From the IMG/VR virus record IMGVR_UViG_2703718843_000010: 22,143 nt of DNA. One strand, written 5' to 3'. The notes under the pieces were generated by a model that was given only the letters and a program-made list of their open reading frames with translations, had not been told where the DNA came from and ran no database searches. Position numbers and translations under genes: made by a program. This document shows, piece after piece, positions 2,939-9,996 of the stretch (positions are counted from its first letter, which is position 1; each line of letters opens with the position of its first letter). The DNA comes from a virus (Duplodnaviria; Heunggongvirae; Uroviricota; Caudoviricetes).

Positions 2939-3151
2939 ATGACCAGACGTGAACAATATAGTTTCATTTTGCATGTTCTTTTACCTGCTATCGAAAATGA
3001 AGGGTTAACCATTAAAACCCGCCGTGATGGTGAGTTAACCCTTTCTGCCAGTGGGTCTGTAGCAACCAATTTTATAAGCAATCTGCGCCAGCACTGCATT
3101 GAAGAATTGCAGCGCCCTTCTATTCCAGCTTCCCATTACGGAGTCCTATAA
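2939..3151 (+). CDS. Hypothetical small protein (70 aa) immediately upstream of dam
   Basis: ATG at 2939 with GGAGG at 8-nt spacing; its stop (3149-3151) is one base before the dam ATG. Confidence 0.5.
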   Translation: MTRREQYSFILHVLLPAIENEGLTIKTRRDGELTLSASGSVATNFISNLRQHCIEELQRPSIPASHYGVL

Positions 3152-3152
3152 A

Positions 3153-4124
3153 ATGATCCGCCCGTTCATCAAATGGGCAGGGGGTAAAACCCGTGTCCTC
3201 CCTGACCTGCTGCCGCATCTTCCTAAAGTCGACTGCCTGATCGAACCATTCGTAGGCGGTGCATCGGTATTTCTGGCGACTGAATACCGCCGCTATGTGC
3301 TGGCTGATATCAACCCAGATCTTATTAACCTGTATCGGGAAGTCACCCGTTACCCGGACTTAGTGATCGATGCGGCCCGCGAACTGTTCAACAGTAAGAA
3401 CAACCCGCAGGGATACAACGAAGTCCGCGCCGCGTTCAATAAGCAGGTGGGTACGGTAAAAAGCGGTGGGTTGCGTTATGGCGCTGAAATGGCGTGCATT
3501 ATGCGCGCTGCTCAATTCCTGTATCTGAATCGCCACGGTTATAACGGCTTATGCCGATACAGCCGGAAGACCGGCTTTAACGTGCCGTTTGGCAAGTATA
3601 AGAGCGTCTACTTTCCTGAAAATGAAATCCGCCTGTTTGCCGAAAAGGCCAACGATACAAAGGCAATATTTCTTTGCGCGCCGTTCCAGCGTTCTCTACA
3701 AGTCGTCACGGGTGGCGATGTTCTTGTTTACTGCGATCCGCCTTACCTGCCTGAAAGCAAAACAGCCGATTTTACCCAATACCACACCGAACCATTCACG
3801 GAAGACAACCACCGCCAGTTAGTCCAGGCACTGCTGGAAGTTAACCGTAAGCATGGCGTGAAGGTCGTCATTTCCAACAGCGACACCGAAGCCACCCGCG
3901 TGATTTATCAGCCCTTCAAGATGCACGAAATCAGCGTGCAACGTTCCGTCAGCACTGACAAAGACAACCGCCAGAAGGCCAAAGAAGTGATCGGCGTGCT
4001 GCCTGTCTGCGACTGCTGCGGGCGTTACGGCGGCGGTTGCCCTGATTGTGGCGCCGTGATGGGTGATGCGACTTACAACGCGATGGTTGCGGCGGGCACG
4101 TTTGACGATCTGGAGGCTTTTTAA
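3153..4124 (+). CDS. dam: DNA adenine methyltransferase, Dam family (D12 class, likely GATC), with a C-terminal cysteine-cluster extension
   Basis: N-terminal FIKWAGGK, SAM-binding EPFVGGASVFL and catalytic DPPY, with overall collinearity to E. coli Dam as remembered. Extra tail VCDCCGRYGGGCPDCG. ATG at 3153 with GGAG upstream. Confidence 0.9.
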   Translation: MIRPFIKWAGGKTRVLPDLLPHLPKVDCLIEPFVGGASVFLATEYRRYVLADINPDLINLYREVTRYPDLVIDAARELFNSKNNPQGYNEVRAAFNKQVGTVKSGGLRYGAEMACIMRAAQFLYLNRHGYNGLCRYSRKTGFNVPFGKYKSVYFPENEIRLFAEKANDTKAIFLCAPFQRSLQVVTGGDVLVYCDPPYLPESKTADFTQYHTEPFTEDNHRQLVQALLEVNRKHGVKVVISNSDTEATRVIYQPFKMHEISVQRSVSTDKDNRQKAKEVIGVLPVCDCCGRYGGGCPDCGAVMGDATYNAMVAAGTFDDLEAF

Positions 4125-4444: not shown

Positions 4445-5355
4445 CCGCCTACTACAACGAAATCGACCCCTTCGCCGCGCAATACCTGCGCAACCTCATT
4501 GATGCCGGGCTTATCGCTTCCGGTGTTGTCGATACTCGTTCCGTTGAGGATGTAACCCCAAATGACCTTAAAGGATTCTCACAAGTCCACCTGTTTGCAG
4601 GTTTTGGAGGCTGGCCCCGTGCTTTGCGCGTCGCAGGATGGCCGGACGACCGCCCAGTATGGACAGCAAGTTGCCCATGCCAACCTTTCAGCCAGGCAGG
4701 CGAAGGAAAACAATTTGATGATGAGCGGCACCTATGGCCCGCCGTTCATTGGCTTGCAGGCCAGCAACGCCCTGTCGTTATATTTGGCGAACAGTCTTCA
4801 AGCAAAGATGCAGAAGTCTGGATCGACCTTGTACAAACTGACATGGAAAGTTTGGGCTATGCCTTCGGGGCGTCGGCGTTTCCGTCTGCGGGCGTCGGTG
4901 CGCCGCACATCCGGGAGCGTACTTACTGGCTGGCCGACTCCAACCGCGAGCAATACGAAGAACGCTTATCAGGATGCCGAGAAGGTGATCGCCAGGAAGC
5001 TGGCTGGTCGGCAGTCGAACTTACAGGGCTTTGCTTGTCTTGCGGGTTGGCCCACCCCTGCGGCGAGGGATGGAAAGGGCGGGTATCAGGGAGGAAGGAT
5101 GCGGCACGGGAAGCTGTCAACGGATACGCTGGATGTGACAGCGCAGATAGCAGGCCCGGCCCGGTTAACGGATTCTGGGGATCTGCTGACTGGCTCCTTT
5201 GCAGAGATGGAAAGTGGAGGCCAGTTAAACCCGGCCTTAAGCCTCTGGTTGATGGGGTTCCCTCCAGAGTGGGAAAACTACGCGCCAGCGGAAACGCCGT
5301 AAATATCTATGCAGCCGCAACTTTCTTAAAAGCCTACATGGAGATCGCGCAATGA
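4441..5355 (+). CDS. DNA cytosine-5 methyltransferase (phage-type); a second long overlapping frame is described in findings
   Basis: GTG start overlapping the upstream stop (GTGA). Motif I FAGFGG, motif IV PCQPFSQAG, GEQ-type motif VI region, motif VIII GAPHIRERTYWLA, motif X GNAVN...FLKAY. Stop overlaps the gene A ATG. Confidence 0.8.
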   Translation: MTAYYNEIDPFAAQYLRNLIDAGLIASGVVDTRSVEDVTPNDLKGFSQVHLFAGFGGWPRALRVAGWPDDRPVWTASCPCQPFSQAGEGKQFDDERHLWPAVHWLAGQQRPVVIFGEQSSSKDAEVWIDLVQTDMESLGYAFGASAFPSAGVGAPHIRERTYWLADSNREQYEERLSGCREGDRQEAGWSAVELTGLCLSCGLAHPCGEGWKGRVSGRKDAAREAVNGYAGCDSADSRPGPVNGFWGSADWLLCRDGKWRPVKPGLKPLVDGVPSRVGKLRASGNAVNIYAAATFLKAYMEIAQ

Positions 5356-7757
5356 CCACGGCAACCCGTGGCCGTCGCGCCCCTTCTCCACCTCCACCGT
5401 ATCCGGGTAGCACTGACAATGCTATCCCTTACGCTTATGGCGGGAACAAACCATACCAGCCTATTGGCGTTGATGTAGCGCCGGGGCTGGATGGTTTCGA
5501 CTATCTCACGCCGGACGGCACGCGTAAGCATATTGCGTTCAGTGAACTGGTAGCGGAAGACGAAAAGCCGGAGCGCAGCAAGCTGCTGCGTCGCCGCCTG
5601 GCTTCTCTTCCGCAGTATATCCGCCGCCACTTTGCCGCGAAGCTGGATGCACTGGACGCGAAAGACCGCAAAGCGGCAGATCACTGGCTGGTTAATACAT
5701 TTGAGCGCCACGTATTAACGCGTATTGATAGCGTGAACAGTGTTTACCAGCCTGACACTGTGATGCCCGGCATTCTGCTGCCAATCCGCGATCAGCTTTT
5801 CCGTATGCTCTGGGCAGGGAAGAAAGAGTTAAAAAGACTGGCTTATACGCTTGCCGATATCTTTACGAGCGAGTTTATACGCGAGTCCGATCACCAGTTG
5901 GCACGCACCGGAGATCCTGAGTTCGCGGCGCTTTCTGGCTATGGCCGTATTGCGTCGCTGGCGGTGCATCTGAAAACGCCGATCCCTGGCTGGACGGCGT
6001 ATTGCAATGAAGAACTGGAAGCGGAGGACGCGTTACGCGCGGTTCTTCGCCTTGAGTCACCGCAGTGGTGGTTAAACCGCCTGCGCCGTATCCATGCCCG
6101 GTGGCGTGAGCATTTGATGATCGCAGCGGGATACGTCCAGAAAAAATCTTCCCCATACAGTAGCGCCCCGTGCCTTACGGAGTGGTTGGCCCAGAAAAAG
6201 GCTAACCGTGAATACCTTAAGGCTATGGAACTGGAAGACCAGGACACGGGCGAACGCATTTCACTGATCGATAAAGTCGCCGGTAGTGTTGCCAATCCGG
6301 CCAACCGTCGCCGCGAACTCATGACGAGAATGCGCGGATTTGAAGATCTGGCGAAGCTGGAAGGGCTGGCCGGTGACTTCTACACGCTAACAGCACCTTC
6401 CCGTTACCACTCCATGCAGCATAACGGGCGCCGCAATAATAAATACTGTGGCGCGTCGCCGCGCGAGACGCAGCAATATCTTTGCAAAGTCTGGGCGAGA
6501 ACCCGCGCAGCGTGGAAGAGAAAAGGGATCCGCGTCTTTGGTTTCCGCGTGGTCGAACCGCACCACGATGCAACGCCACACTGGCATTTACTTCTTTTTA
6601 TGCGCCCGGAATGCGTCGAGCAGGCGCGCGAAATCTTCCGTAAATATGCCCTGAAAGAAGACGGCAACGAACCGGGAGCGCAGGAAAACCGCTTTCAGGT
6701 TGTGCCGATCGACGATGCCCACGGCAGCGCAACCGGCTACATAGCGAAATACATTTCGAAGAATATCGACGGCTTCGCGCTGGATGGTGAGAAGGACGAC
6801 GAAACCGGGGAAGACCTGAAAGAAATGTCACTCCGCGTTAGCGCGTGGGCATCGCGCTGGGCTATTCGTCAGTTTCAGCAGATCGGCGGTGCGCCGGTCA
6901 CGGTATATCGCGAACTTCGCCGCCTGGGCGATCGCGAACTGGTGTTACACCCTGAACTGGAAACCGCCCGGCAGGCCGCTAACGGTGGCGAATGGGATAA
7001 CTACGTATTAGCCCAGGGTGGACCGTTGGTTGAGCGCGATAAGCTGCGCATCCGTCTGAATTATGAAACCACTGAAAACGGCAACGCCTACGGCGATAAC
7101 GTCCAGCGAATCACTGGTATTTACTGCCCGATTACGGGCAATGACTCTTTGATCTTCACCCGCACCACTCAATACAAAATCGTGCCGAAGCGCCAGAGCG
7201 CTGACGGTGTGGCCGTTGACGTTGGTTTTTCAGGCGGCAACGCCGCCCCTCGGAGTTCTGTCAATAACTGTACGCGGGATCCCGCGGCAGGTGCTGACGG
7301 TGTAGAACATGCCGCCAGCGAAGCTACAGGGCAGTCAGAAATGACTGAGCCAGCTGAGGGCGTGACGGTGAATTTTGATGCGCTTTCACGGCAGGAAAAG
7401 CGAGAATTGGCGCAGCGGCTCAGTGCCGATGTGCGAAGTAAGCGTAAAAAACGGCCACCGGATAGGGAAGACAGGGCCGGGCTGTCCGTGAAAGAGCAGC
7501 AGATCAGTGAACTGCTGGCGCTGCGTGGGATTGATGCCAGCGCCGGAATGGTCAGATCGATGATGGCCGGTGCGTCAGTGGCGTGCGGCGATCTTGTTAT
7601 GACCGTGCAGGACGGGCGGCTGGTGTCGCGCAATCGCGCCGCGTCGGGGATAGGTAAATTAGCAACTGAAAAAATGGCAGTTAAGAAAAAATCTGATGAA
7701 CTTCTCAATCGCTGGAAAGTGGCTGTAAAAATTAACAGGGGTAAGTTGACAAATTGA
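5352..7757 (+). CDS. A: Replication initiation protein A (rolling-circle HUH endonuclease), P2 gpA-like
   Basis: 801 aa with HUH-type motif EPHHDATPHWHLLLF and active-site tyrosine motif GYIAKYISKNIDG; collinear with remembered P2 A. Confidence 0.95.
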   Translation: MTTATRGRRAPSPPPPYPGSTDNAIPYAYGGNKPYQPIGVDVAPGLDGFDYLTPDGTRKHIAFSELVAEDEKPERSKLLRRRLASLPQYIRRHFAAKLDALDAKDRKAADHWLVNTFERHVLTRIDSVNSVYQPDTVMPGILLPIRDQLFRMLWAGKKELKRLAYTLADIFTSEFIRESDHQLARTGDPEFAALSGYGRIASLAVHLKTPIPGWTAYCNEELEAEDALRAVLRLESPQWWLNRLRRIHARWREHLMIAAGYVQKKSSPYSSAPCLTEWLAQKKANREYLKAMELEDQDTGERISLIDKVAGSVANPANRRRELMTRMRGFEDLAKLEGLAGDFYTLTAPSRYHSMQHNGRRNNKYCGASPRETQQYLCKVWARTRAAWKRKGIRVFGFRVVEPHHDATPHWHLLLFMRPECVEQAREIFRKYALKEDGNEPGAQENRFQVVPIDDAHGSATGYIAKYISKNIDGFALDGEKDDETGEDLKEMSLRVSAWASRWAIRQFQQIGGAPVTVYRELRRLGDRELVLHPELETARQAANGGEWDNYVLAQGGPLVERDKLRIRLNYETTENGNAYGDNVQRITGIYCPITGNDSLIFTRTTQYKIVPKRQSADGVAVDVGFSGGNAAPRSSVNNCTRDPAAGADGVEHAASEATGQSEMTEPAEGVTVNFDALSRQEKRELAQRLSADVRSKRKKRPPDREDRAGLSVKEQQISELLALRGIDASAGMVRSMMAGASVACGDLVMTVQDGRLVSRNRAASGIGKLATEKMAVKKKSDELLNRWKVAVKINRGKLTN
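7233..7287. other. Candidate replication origin (nick-site region) inside gene A
   Basis: Hairpin GGCGG-CAACG-CCGCC, then CCTCGGAGTTCTGTCAATAACTG, then perfect palindrome CGCGGGATCCCGCG. Encodes the AAPRSSVNNC linker that I remember as the ori-containing part of P2 A. Confidence 0.35.
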
Positions 7758-7774
7758 AAAATCTGCACCATCAT
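7746..7774 (+). promoter_or_regulatory. Candidate promoter for the cargo cassette (TTGACA, 17-nt spacer, CATCAT)
   Basis: Perfect -35 hexamer at 7746-7751 and a weak -10 at 7769-7774; a second TTGACA...TGCAC module follows 34 bp downstream. Confidence 0.3.
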
Positions 7775-7820
7775 TCTGGTTGACAAAGTTTGATATTTGC
7801 ACTCATGGAGATTTGGATTG

Positions 7821-8414
7821 ATGTCTAAGCAGCCTTTACCTTGGGACTTTCACCCACAATTAACTGAAGAGCGTTTAACAATTATTGCTAAAGAATTGTT
7901 AAGGGTCTTAAATGACACATATGCTCAACTTTCGACCACCTTGGATAACAACTATACACGTTCTACTTGTACTTTTGGTCGTCAATGGCAGTTACTTATT
8001 GATTTATGTTTGAGTGGACAGTACGACTGGCTTCATCTCACCAACGCTGGTTTAGACATCACTTTTACGATCGATACAATTCCTGTTCGTTTCTTCACTG
8101 ATGATCCGGCCAATCCTAAAAAGGATGGTTTTTATCGTCGAAATCCTGCTGATCAGCTTTTTGCTCCTGAGGTGGACATTCCCGTTTTACATCGCTTTGT
8201 TGTTGAGAAACCCGAATTTGAGGGTGAAGGCGCTAAAGTTCATTTCATTGGTTATAACGCTTTGGACGAAGAAGTATCTAAGTGGACGTACAACGATGAA
8301 CCAACAACAGCATTGTTGCACTCTACGGATGATACACCGCCAGAGTCTGTTAGAATTGAACTTGATGACATTCGCCCTTCTCGTCCCGAAAAGGAAGAAA
8401 AAGAGAGCGATTGA
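7821..8414 (+). CDS. Hypothetical protein (197 aa), first gene of the hotspot cassette; candidate effector or toxin
   Basis: ATG at 7821 with GGAG upstream. No motif I recognise; acidic, low-complexity C-terminal tail (PSRPEKEEKESD). AT-richer than the flanking phage genes. Confidence 0.6.
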   Translation: MSKQPLPWDFHPQLTEERLTIIAKELLRVLNDTYAQLSTTLDNNYTRSTCTFGRQWQLLIDLCLSGQYDWLHLTNAGLDITFTIDTIPVRFFTDDPANPKKDGFYRRNPADQLFAPEVDIPVLHRFVVEKPEFEGEGAKVHFIGYNALDEEVSKWTYNDEPTTALLHSTDDTPPESVRIELDDIRPSRPEKEEKESD

Positions 8415-8437: not shown

Positions 8438-9550
8438 GTGTTTAACGGTTCTAATTTAAGATTGGCTCGTCTGTATCACGAGCTATCACTGGAGCAAGTA
8501 GCTGAGCGGGTCGATAAGACCCGCCAGTATATTCAGCGGCTGGAATCCGGCACGGCTGTTCCAACACCCGAGCTTGCGAATAAATTAGCTGCCGTCTTGC
8601 TGGTGATGCCTCATTTTTTTGAAGAGCAATGGCAGTCTCCTGTAAATGAAGAGATCGTTCACTTCCGCAAGCGTAGTTCTACGAGAGTCGCCACAAAAAT
8701 GGCGACTCTCGCCAAAGCTGAGCTGTATCGACGACTTATTGAAATTTTTGAAGAGTATCTGGAGTTACCGCAAGTAAGATTTCCTGAACTGAAGGTGGAT
8801 ACTCAAGAGGATATCGAAAAAGCAGCGGAGAAGTGCCGGACTGATTGGGGGCTAGGTTTTGGGCCGATCGATAACATGACTCGTCTTGCTGAAAAGCTGG
8901 GAGCGTTTGTCACTTCTTTTGATTCTGTTTCTGACGATGTTGATGCTCTTTCTGTTCCTTTGAGCCGCCCATTTATCGTAAGGAATACAGCTAAAAAGTC
9001 ACCCTGCCGTCAGCGGTTTGATATCGCTCACGAGGTTGCACATTTAATTTTACATGAGGGTGTCTCTACTGGAGACAGGGCTACTGAGTCGCAGGCTAAC
9101 CGCTTCGCGTCTGCATTGCTTTTGCCAAGAACAGCTATGGCGAAATATTTTCCACGTCCGATTGGTGGTCGAATCGACTGGCAAGGTCTTAGCCAGTTTA
9201 AATTAACGTGGAAAGTGAGTAAGGCCGCGATCATTTATAGAGCACATCAACTTGGGCTTTTAACTGACGCTCAATACAAAACCGCCTTTTTTGGTCTCAA
9301 GCGAAAGGGGGAGGCTATTGATGAGAAAGAAGATTATTTGATCCCTTGTGAGAAGCCAGAACTATTCAGTAAAGCAATGAAATGCCTGTTAAATGATTTG
9401 TCCGTGGATATTGAAACATTAGCCCAGCGTTTGAGCATAACCCCTACGATGCTCGCAGAACTTGCTAATGATGACACTTTGGTTTCTGCGTCATGTGTGA
9501 ACTCTGAGAATGTAATTTCAATGTTTGCGTATCGGATGAAAACTGCTTAA
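8438..9550 (+). CDS. XRE-family HTH fused to ImmA/IrrE-type (M78, COG2856) zinc metallopeptidase, with an extra C-terminal region
   Basis: GTG start with AAGGTG at 5-nt spacing. N-terminal HTH LRLARLYHELSLEQVAERVDKTRQYIQRLESG; HExxH motif HEVAH encoded at 9029-9043 within the ImmA-like core; about 150 further residues after the core. Confidence 0.85.
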   Translation: MFNGSNLRLARLYHELSLEQVAERVDKTRQYIQRLESGTAVPTPELANKLAAVLLVMPHFFEEQWQSPVNEEIVHFRKRSSTRVATKMATLAKAELYRRLIEIFEEYLELPQVRFPELKVDTQEDIEKAAEKCRTDWGLGFGPIDNMTRLAEKLGAFVTSFDSVSDDVDALSVPLSRPFIVRNTAKKSPCRQRFDIAHEVAHLILHEGVSTGDRATESQANRFASALLLPRTAMAKYFPRPIGGRIDWQGLSQFKLTWKVSKAAIIYRAHQLGLLTDAQYKTAFFGLKRKGEAIDEKEDYLIPCEKPELFSKAMKCLLNDLSVDIETLAQRLSITPTMLAELANDDTLVSASCVNSENVISMFAYRMKTA

Positions 9551-9564
9551 AAATCGCTGTGATG

Positions 9565-9593
9565 AAAAATCCCGCTTCGGCGGGATTTTTTTT
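9565..9593. terminator. Rho-independent terminator, potentially bidirectional
   Basis: Stem AATCCCGC / GCGGGATT with TTCG loop followed by eight T; a five-A run precedes the stem. Confidence 0.8.
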
Positions 9594-9996
9594 AGAAGAT
9601 GTCTGCACAATAGTGCACAAATTTGCACAATTTTTTTGATGCTGTTTATGCCCTTTCCGCCCTGTGGCGGCGCGGTCTGCCCCCGGATCGGCAAGTGCAC
9701 AAAAAACGAAGCAAATGTCGCGCGCAGGTGACGGGGGAACAGCCCACGCGACAGGGGTCAGGGAGGGGGTGCCATTAAATGCCATTCTTCGGCCTTTTCC
9801 GCCTTCTTAGCGCGCTTTCTCGCTTCTGGATATGTGCGGGGTCGATTGCAGTTTGCACCTGCCAGAATGGTGCTCATTCGCTCTGAGTGAGGGGGGTAAA
9901 TGCTGCGCTGAGTGGTGTTCAGGTGGTGGCCGGTCATGCGGGGATTGAAAATTACTGAAGGAGAGCCGCCGCAGGATGTGCGGCGGGTGGGTCGGG
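9594..9996. other. cos / packaging region (inferred from synteny; exact cohesive-end position not determined)
   Basis: About 400-bp non-coding interval between the cargo terminator and the 3' end of portal gene Q, where P2 has cos. Contains G-rich tracts and the TGCACAA repeats. Confidence 0.4.
9604..9630. repeat. Three TGCACAA direct repeats at exact 10-bp spacing (9604, 9614, 9624); fourth copy at 9696-9702
   Basis: Read directly from the sequence. Confidence 0.8.

Follow-up and report, generated by a model that had tools for sequence, protein, structure and literature searches.

A conserved tandem module upstream of rmrT, the probable promoter-operator region of a RosmerTA anti-phage cassette in a P2-like phage

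The 22,143-nt stretch of DNA analysed here (the window), taken from the IMG/VR virus record IMGVR_UViG_2703718843_000010 (Caudoviricetes), carries gene A, which codes for a P2-type replication protein (open reading frame [ORF] 5352-7757, 801 codons; Pfam Phage_GPA, 1.8e-105), and downstream of it a two-gene cassette which, going by its protein matches, is a RosmerTA anti-phage toxin-antitoxin (TA) system. Two similar modules straddle the end of gene A and precede the cassette, and 3' of the cassette terminator lies the cos-proximal backbone, then the reverse-strand portal and terminase genes. We propose, at a probability of roughly 0.7, that the modules form the cis-regulatory region of the rmrT-rmrA operon, a sigma-70 promoter together with two operators that are probably bound by the helix-turn-helix (HTH) domain of RmrA for autoregulation. 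The features of the locus are as follows, with positions in the window.

7650-7757, + strand: divergent AT-rich 3' tail of gene A, apparently arrived with the cassette (homology stop and GC drop; left mosaic junction at about 7649/7650)
7723-7738, no strand assigned: palindrome CTGTAAAAATTAACAG, CTGT-N8-ACAG, 7 bp upstream of the -35 hexamer; membership in the system tentative
7745-7768, + strand: module 1, putative operator O1, overlapping the promoter from the -35 through the spacer (sequence read, repeat finder and pattern count; kept in 57 versions)
7746-7751, + strand: -35 hexamer TTGACA, 6/6 consensus, invariant or nearly so in all loci
7769-7774, + strand: -10 hexamer CATCAT, 17 nt 3' of the -35 (promoter scan)
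7779-7802, + strand: module 2, putative operator O2, spanning the predicted start at about 7781-7783 and the first ~20 nt of the transcript
7807-7810, + strand: Shine-Dalgarno (SD) sequence GGAG of rmrT, read from the sequence, with the ATG at 7821
7821-8414, + strand: rmrT, toxin gene, 197 amino acids (PADLOC RmrT, 7.5e-92, full length)
8438-9550, + strand: rmrA, antitoxin gene, on the same strand as rmrT (PADLOC RmrA, 2.8e-204)
9569-9593, + strand: rho-independent terminator closing the cassette, ATCCCGC-TTCG-GCGGGAT then a T run (read from the sequence)

Module 1 is GTTGACAAATTGAAAAATCTGCAC (7745-7768) and module 2 is GTTGACAAAGTTTGATATTTGCAC (7779-7802). Direct reading and a repeat finder agree that these two 24-nt modules are 75% identical, start 34 bp apart and each place TTGACA 12 nt before TGCAC, just as an earlier sequence-only reading of this DNA had described. 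Its statement that they straddle the end of gene A also holds: the TGA stop (7755-7757) falls within module 1, which thus encodes the final codons of gene A as well, the frame running on through the -35 hexamer (L-T) and stopping in the free centre of the module. The pattern TTGACAAA-N10-TGCA, allowing at most one mismatch, has only two sites in the 22-kb window where 0.13 are expected, and none of 100 shuffles of the window gave two matches or more. A consensus promoter scan picked out TTGACA-17-CATCAT at 7746-7774 (10 of 12 matches) and returned no promoter-like match at module 2, in agreement with the previous claim that only the first module has a plausible -10, CATCAT after a 17-nt spacer.

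The assignment of the cassette to RosmerTA follows from an antitoxin gene with an M78 peptidase domain and an HExxH motif lying beside a toxin gene (PADLOC and Pfam). The N-terminus of RmrA is an Xre-type HTH (residues ~4-56; Pfam HTH_3, 4.2e-12 at 7-54), and an M78/ImmA-IrrE peptidase domain occupies residues 151-269 (Pfam Peptidase_M78, 2.9e-18) with HExxH at 198-202, of which H198, E199 and H202 are invariant in the relatives compared. RmrA also has weaker PADLOC matches to capP (2e-18) and capH (3.2e-6), and no sequence match among solved structures. No Pfam domain was found in RmrT. In its AlphaFold2 model (mean predicted local distance difference test score, 72.7), a pair of long helices precedes a region of six-stranded sheet, and the model has no significant Foldseek match in the PDB (best E = 0.5). 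In other members of the system, RmrT toxicity is neutralised by RmrA and the pair protects against phage (bioRxiv 10.1101/2022.05.11.491447; PMC10440598). The terminator is conserved along with the cassette in the loci L011, L012 and L015. Compared with the window, the enterobacterial loci L003-L015 share 73-89% identity in RmrA and 60-71% in RmrT; the better conservation of RmrA suggests, at the level of sequence identity, that the toxin evolves or is exchanged faster than the antitoxin.

The modules are tied to rmrTA far beyond this phage. In another P2-like prophage (L001, RmrT 64% identity), an extra ORF separates gene A from rmrT, and TTGACAAATCTAAATATTTGCAC and TTGACAAAACCCAACATTTGCAC, 34 bp apart, stand immediately 5' of rmrT. 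With a profile of RmrT we gathered 18 further loci (RmrT identity 38-71%) from species-representative genomes, in Pseudescherichia, Photorhabdus, Pectobacterium, Pantoea, Enterobacter, Yersinia, Klebsiella, Pseudoxanthomonas, a Burkholderiaceae bacterium, Pseudomonas, Polaromonas, Azomonas, Gallionella and Methylobacter. The tandem unit was present 5' of rmrT in 19 of 19 related genome loci, which range from 38 to 73% RmrT identity and span Gamma- and Betaproteobacteria. Among the genome loci gpA is nearby in L001 only, and L015 retains a 28-residue gpA fragment; the neighbours are lambda-type O and P replication genes (L015), cpxA/cpxR/cpxP (L003 and L012), a DUF4942 gene and a glycosyltransferase gene (L011), and a Yersinia island among other contexts.

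The same association emerged from a scan of IMG/VR that was blind to genes and used a bare DNA pattern of two units with 23 specified bases. It matched 36 contigs, in 34 of which rmrT starts 72-96 nt after module 1 and is followed by rmrA, with gpA fused as in the window, 300-1,200 bp off, or absent. Most of the loci have neither gpA nor gpQ in their vicinity, and besides P2-like and lambdoid prophages their settings include chromosomal sites. A search with an RmrA profile added 51 viral loci, down to 47% identity in RmrA and ~30% in RmrT; all carry an rmrT-family gene, and the pair or a recognisable variant is there wherever the upstream DNA is usable. Altogether 105 of the 108 loci have the pair, which takes 57 distinct versions; the chance expectation for the 0.82 Mb compared is 0.44. 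The three loci without it are L002, which has other cargo, L085, truncated at a contig end, and L068, which has one unit only. Among the loci collected, we found neither the modules nor an RmrA relative paired with a different toxin.

Because the unit is kept with rmrTA in unrelated contexts, it is better read as a regulatory element than as the trace of an insertion. Of the two options put forward in the sequence-only reading, a promoter plus operator or a recombination scar marking the boundary of the cassette, the former is well supported by conservation with rmrTA, by a -10 at copy 1 only and by the co-variation of the 3' halves described below. A scar or recombination site next to gene A would agree with the position of the repeat over the gene A stop codon, with DNA homology between the window and L001, L004, L006 and L008 that starts exactly at module 1, and with a TGCAC-containing repeat on the other flank (9603-9630). 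We nevertheless consider it very improbable, since the pair accompanies the cassette outside P2-like phages and is internal to it, the DNA-homology breakpoints in the window lying at ~7649 and ~9602, away from the repeats. Homology that starts at a promoter is also what selection on a functional unit predicts, and no recombinase is associated. The right-flank repeat CTGCACAATAGTGCACAAATTTGCAC (9603-9630), tried as the partner of such a scar, was rejected: it is P2 backbone by cos, present in L002 with its other cargo and absent from the non-P2 rmrTA loci L012 and L015, and the shared pentamer is coincidental. The modules could also have been a conserved piece of gene A, kept whatever the cargo, as the sequence-only reading had allowed; in L002, whose gpA is 96% identical, the tandem unit was not found, which speaks against this.

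Comparison of the versions gives a consensus unit TTGACAAA-N9-(T)TGCA(C), present twice at 34 bp (40 versions) or 33 bp (17 versions). Its 5' half, TTGACAAA, is essentially invariant in both copies; the centre of 8-9 nt is A/T-rich and otherwise unconstrained; and the 3' half, (T)TGCA(C), is conserved within clades and differs between them. After copy 1, at a 17-nt spacer, come the hexamers CAACAT, CATCAT, CAATAT, CATTAT, GATTAT, TAAAAT and similar, in which A2 and T6 are present in 20 of the first 20 loci and are the most informative positions over the 57 versions, whereas an information profile of the same versions holds no information at the equivalent positions after copy 2. Such conservation of A2 and T6 is the signature of a sigma-70 -10 element, and with the 6/6 TTGACA at the -35 it completes a predicted sigma-70 promoter. 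L021 and nine further contigs (10 in all) make up the commonest E. coli type; in these, 5 nt lie between the end of a rho-independent terminator and module 1, and transcription must therefore begin at the module. Copy 1 is thus the likely promoter, with a start predicted at about 7781-7783, within the opening bases of copy 2, which would place copy 2 at about -1 to +22. A sigma-54 promoter, considered for the resemblance of TTGCA to a -12 box, was discarded: there is no TGGCAC 11 nt upstream and the spacing is wrong.

Since TTGACA is perfect in both copies, and consensus -35 boxes are selected in strong promoters, the pair might instead be two tandem sigma-70 promoters conserved for polymerase alone, with no repressor involved. 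We find this quite improbable. No conserved -10 follows copy 2, and in the distant loci just 10-12 nt separate copy 2 from the rmrT start codon, the SD lying directly against copy 2; a -10, a leader and an SD would not fit into that interval. Nor does sigma-70 require a conserved TTGACAAA with a co-varying block 9 nt away. On this comparison, RNA polymerase does not account for a second perfect TTGACAAA that lacks a -10 and is kept over such an evolutionary distance.

Module 2 is predicted to be transcribed, and its weak dyad, CAAA-N8-TTTG, could make a short stem, so the constraint might act on RNA, for example through a 5' untranslated region hairpin UUGACAAA...UUUGCA controlling translation or stability. 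This also strikes us as very hard to sustain: the predicted leader (7781-7840) folds no better than shuffled sequences (-8.2 kcal/mol, z = 0.45), it has no Rfam match, and the stem arms never vary, so that no compensatory change supports pairing. Moreover, module 1 is equally constrained and lies upstream of the predicted start, directly after the terminator in L021-type loci. A separate 9-nt complementarity between 7759-7767 and the SD region (7806-7814) was set aside as an RNA element, as it is not seen in the relatives' sequences.

What points to a DNA-binding protein is the behaviour of the 3' halves, which occur as TTGCAC, TTGCCA, CTGCAA, CAGCAA, TAGCAA, TAGTCC and xxGAAC. Over 7 nt, the two 3' halves of one locus are identical at 6.0 positions compared to 4.98 between loci, a value reached in 0 of 10,000 permutations (the test ignores relatedness and gives the direction of the effect, not a probability). 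The central 8 nt have no such extra likeness within a locus (2.77 compared to 2.84 between loci). As the 3' halves are alike and the centres are not, the likeness appears to be selected and not a product of recent duplication or gene conversion. Both copies thus seem held to one recognition sequence, a constraint that a factor evolving together with the cassette would be expected to impose.

RmrA, which contains the only recognisable DNA-binding domain in the cassette, is most likely the putative binder. The motif TRQY of its recognition helix is kept in every clade examined (TRQF in L103), in parallel with the invariant TTGACAAA half-site. Repeated conserved sites over the operon's own promoter are combined with an antitoxin that has a DNA-binding domain (HTH_3), as in autoregulated TA operons. 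A regulator encoded by the host, or RmrT itself, could bind the operators in its place: the clades that differ in their 3' half also differ in host taxon, and rmrT and rmrA are never found apart. We judge this unlikely, though the least so of the competing explanations, because RmrT has no recognisable DNA-binding domain or fold (Pfam; Foldseek against the PDB), RmrA has an HTH with a conserved recognition helix, and antitoxin autoregulation is the rule in type II TA systems. An orphan host factor with one and the same 8-mer as its target all the way from Enterobacterales to Gallionella is not known to us.

Two decayed copies fit the proposed promoter and operators. In L068 (~1855-1900), exactly one 34-bp unit has been lost together with the -10 by recombination between the repeats, leaving a single module, and rmrT is frameshifted. 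In L036 (reverse strand; module 1 at 7500, motif orientation), the -10 is CATCAA, with T6 lost, and rmrA is lost after residue 28; the rmrT frame appears interrupted, its longest ORF being 136 amino acids, though tblastn aligns residues 1-189.

Several observations weigh against RmrA-bound operators around a sigma-70 promoter. The -10 of the window matches consensus at only 4 of 6 positions, with a C at position 1. The unit falls short of a clean inverted repeat, its outer parts being asymmetric around CAAA-N8-TTTG, which is unusual for a dimeric Xre-type HTH, and with a spacing of 34 or 33 bp, or 3.1-3.2 helical turns, the two sites are not precisely aligned on one face of the helix. In these data the rmrT and rmrA families are only ever seen together, which keeps the comparison from telling whether RmrA or RmrT is the binder; clades with different 3' halves differ in host taxon too, leaving room for a host factor; and the blindness of the permutation test to phylogenetic relatedness counts on the same side. 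One phage, seen twice (L023 and L049) and accounting for the two remaining contigs of the gene-blind scan, has an intact module pair without rmrTA behind it. Finally, the whole case for the start, the binding and the repression is built on sequence comparison. The orphan pair, TTGACAAAATACATTATTTGCAC ... TTGACAAAAATTCATTTTTGCAC, lies at 5312-5366 in L023 (381-435 on the reverse strand of L049), is oriented towards the 3' end of gene A, and its -10, TCAAAG, is poor. The phage is AT-rich and P2-like, and the pair may be what is left of a cassette since lost, or it may serve as a site in trans.

With these points taken into account, we favour the following arrangement. Each module would be a 23-bp protein-binding unit with an invariant 5' half, a free centre of 8-9 bp and a clade-specific 3' half. 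O1 would cover the -35 and the spacer and O2 the region from about -1 to +22; from this placement, a repressor bound to O1 and O2 would block both the binding of RNA polymerase and promoter escape. The HTH of RmrA would contact both units, perhaps with the protein assembled as a dimer of dimers, resulting in negative autoregulation of rmrTA as in classical type II TA systems. By analogy with CapH/CapP, ImmR/ImmA and DdrO/IrrE, the M78 peptidase fused to this HTH may lift the repression when triggered, which would raise toxin expression.

A stronger form of this model can be entertained, although we regard it as doubtful. RosmerTA would then be primarily a transcriptionally armed system: RmrA, as a fused, self-inactivating repressor of the CapH-CapP type sitting on both operators, would keep rmrT silent until phage infection or DNA damage caused its peptidase to remove the HTH, giving a burst of toxin transcription, and CTGT-N8-ACAG might reinforce the control in one enterobacterial subclade. 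If so, antitoxin activity would be largely repression, and the clade-specific 23-bp units would be ready-made orthogonal repressor/operator pairs.

The CTGT-N8-ACAG palindrome is a single match in the window, where 0.19 are expected. An exact match to this pattern stands equally far from the -35 in 10 distinct loci, all from one enterobacterial subclade, and a copy with one mismatch does so in L015. Substitutions among the relatives are limited to the N8, leaving intact the core that defines a LexA box. Scored with a position weight matrix built from an uncurated set of 19 LexA sites, the box of the window reaches 11.8 bits and those of its relatives 13-16, compared to 15.4-28 for the sites themselves. 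A LexA box would be expected to occlude the promoter, yet the palindrome lies at about -58 to -43 and overlaps neither the hexamers nor the start. From its sequence and position, CTGTAAAAATTAACAG may be a weak LexA box or an UP-like element, or it may be left over from the tail of gene A. Homology to the subclade of the window begins within 0-5 nt of the palindrome in a number of different contexts: L011, L012/L043/L003, L025 and L047. Strong LexA-like boxes occur at two other loci: CACTGTATGAATAAACAGTA lies near the orphan module pair of L023/L049, and in L001 TACTGTTTATACAAACAGTG (2975-3000; 23 bits with the same matrix) precedes a 64-codon ORF (3046-3240) situated between gene A and rmrTA. 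This box and ORF resemble the SOS-controlled tum region of phage 186.

The cassette occupies the gpA-gpQ region next to cos, which has been described in P2-like phages as a defence hotspot (Rousset et al. 2022, PMC9122126; PMC13586616). Near 7650 the GC content drops from ~0.57 to ~0.40, and near 9600 it is back up. The DNA of other gene A alleles (Salmonella phages SEN4/5 and E. coli prophages) ceases to match at 7649-7657, and homology resumes at 9602-9603. Of 5,426 complete E. coli genomes, 5 contain the entire region. As DNA, the AT-rich final 36 codons of gene A (7650-7757) cannot be aligned with other alleles; as protein, they are homologous to them (tail ...GIGKLATEKMAVKKKSDELLNRWKVAVKINRGKLTN compared to another gpA tail ...GLERLPSQVMAAKQKTSDLVNRMKAAFSRN). 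Homology at the protein level places the left junction at a crossover inside gene A between diverged alleles and eliminates the idea that the AT-rich tail is random cassette DNA; judged by these alignments, the cassette came with its own version of the gene A tail. A frameshifted fossil of the gene A tail also precedes the modules in a Klebsiella lambdoid-prophage locus (L015, 2833-2925) and in L053. Such a fossil indicates transfer of the cassette out of a P2-like phage, and its sequence suggests that the cassette left with a piece of gene A attached. Cargo cassettes of the P2 hotspot may thus bring their own promoter, and the left exchange junction can fall inside gene A, whose frame then ends in the cassette promoter. 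The hotspot papers (PMC9122126; PMC13586616) describe the same site, with breakpoints within conserved flanks; they deal with gene content and swapping and not with the regulatory DNA of single cassettes, whereas in the window the left junction is located within the 3' end of gene A.

Two further observations concern the flanks and cargo of this site. On the right, CTGCACAATAGTGCACAAATTTGCACAA comprises three closely spaced TGCACA repeats near the putative cos, with further TGCAC copies (9603-9630, 9694-9699 and 9855-9859). The repeats are kept in P2-like backbones with any cargo (L002, L005 and L007), could be a terminase or cos-recognition element, and are unrelated to the rmrTA modules despite the common pentamer. 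In L002 the alternative cargo is an ImmA/IrrE-family gene, then a hypothetical gene, and its upstream element is different, a perfect 10-bp inverted repeat, TAGTTATGAC (5293-5302) ... GTCATAACTA (5340-5349), 37 bp apart.

RosmerTA is an experimentally validated anti-phage system whose mechanism is obscure, and a compact regulatory unit conserved across proteobacterial classes is now located upstream of it. In the literature searched, we found no description of a RosmerTA promoter, an RmrA operator or RosmerTA regulation. The closest general precedent is the autoregulated promoter of type II TA systems such as HigBA, MqsRA and HipBA, in which the HTH or ribbon-helix-helix domain of the antitoxin binds operators overlapping the operon promoter. 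The locus resembles these in its two-gene toxin/antitoxin operon, its antitoxin with an Xre-type HTH, and its repeated sites over the -35/spacer and the start site. It differs from them in that the toxin gene comes first, the antitoxin has an M78 metallopeptidase domain, and the sites, whose binding is predicted, are two direct copies of an asymmetric 23-bp unit and not clean palindromes.

A second precedent is CapH/CapP, in CBASS (the antiphage signalling system based on cyclic oligonucleotides) and other defence operons. The CapH tetramer binds a conserved promoter element of ~22 bp, and CapH is a cleavage substrate of the M78 peptidase CapP (Lau et al., bioRxiv 10.1101/2022.04.27.489752); tetramerisation is needed for binding to the 22-bp site, and CapH-CapP fusions exist (bioRxiv 10.1101/2022.04.27.489752). 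Here too, an HTH repressor and an M78/ImmA-type peptidase would control a defence operon, and RmrA matches both models. In contrast to CapH and CapP, which are usually separate genes, divergent and upstream of the operon they control, with the CapH site upstream of the -35, RmrA fuses HTH and peptidase in the product of the second gene of the regulated operon, and this fused protein is also the antitoxin. In ImmR/ImmA of ICEBs1 and DdrO/IrrE of Deinococcus, an Xre-type repressor is inactivated by a COG2856/M78 metalloprotease on DNA damage or a related signal (PMC6868357; PMC10440598). Repressor and protease are separate in both and there is no toxin; cleavage of RmrA would be a matter of analogy with them. 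The HTH-peptidase architecture suggests that the antitoxin may be a self-contained sensor-repressor of the CapH/CapP or ImmR/ImmA kind. The specific regulatory element of RosmerTA thus appears to be undescribed, and its kind is familiar: an autoregulated TA promoter whose regulator resembles a CapH-CapP fusion.

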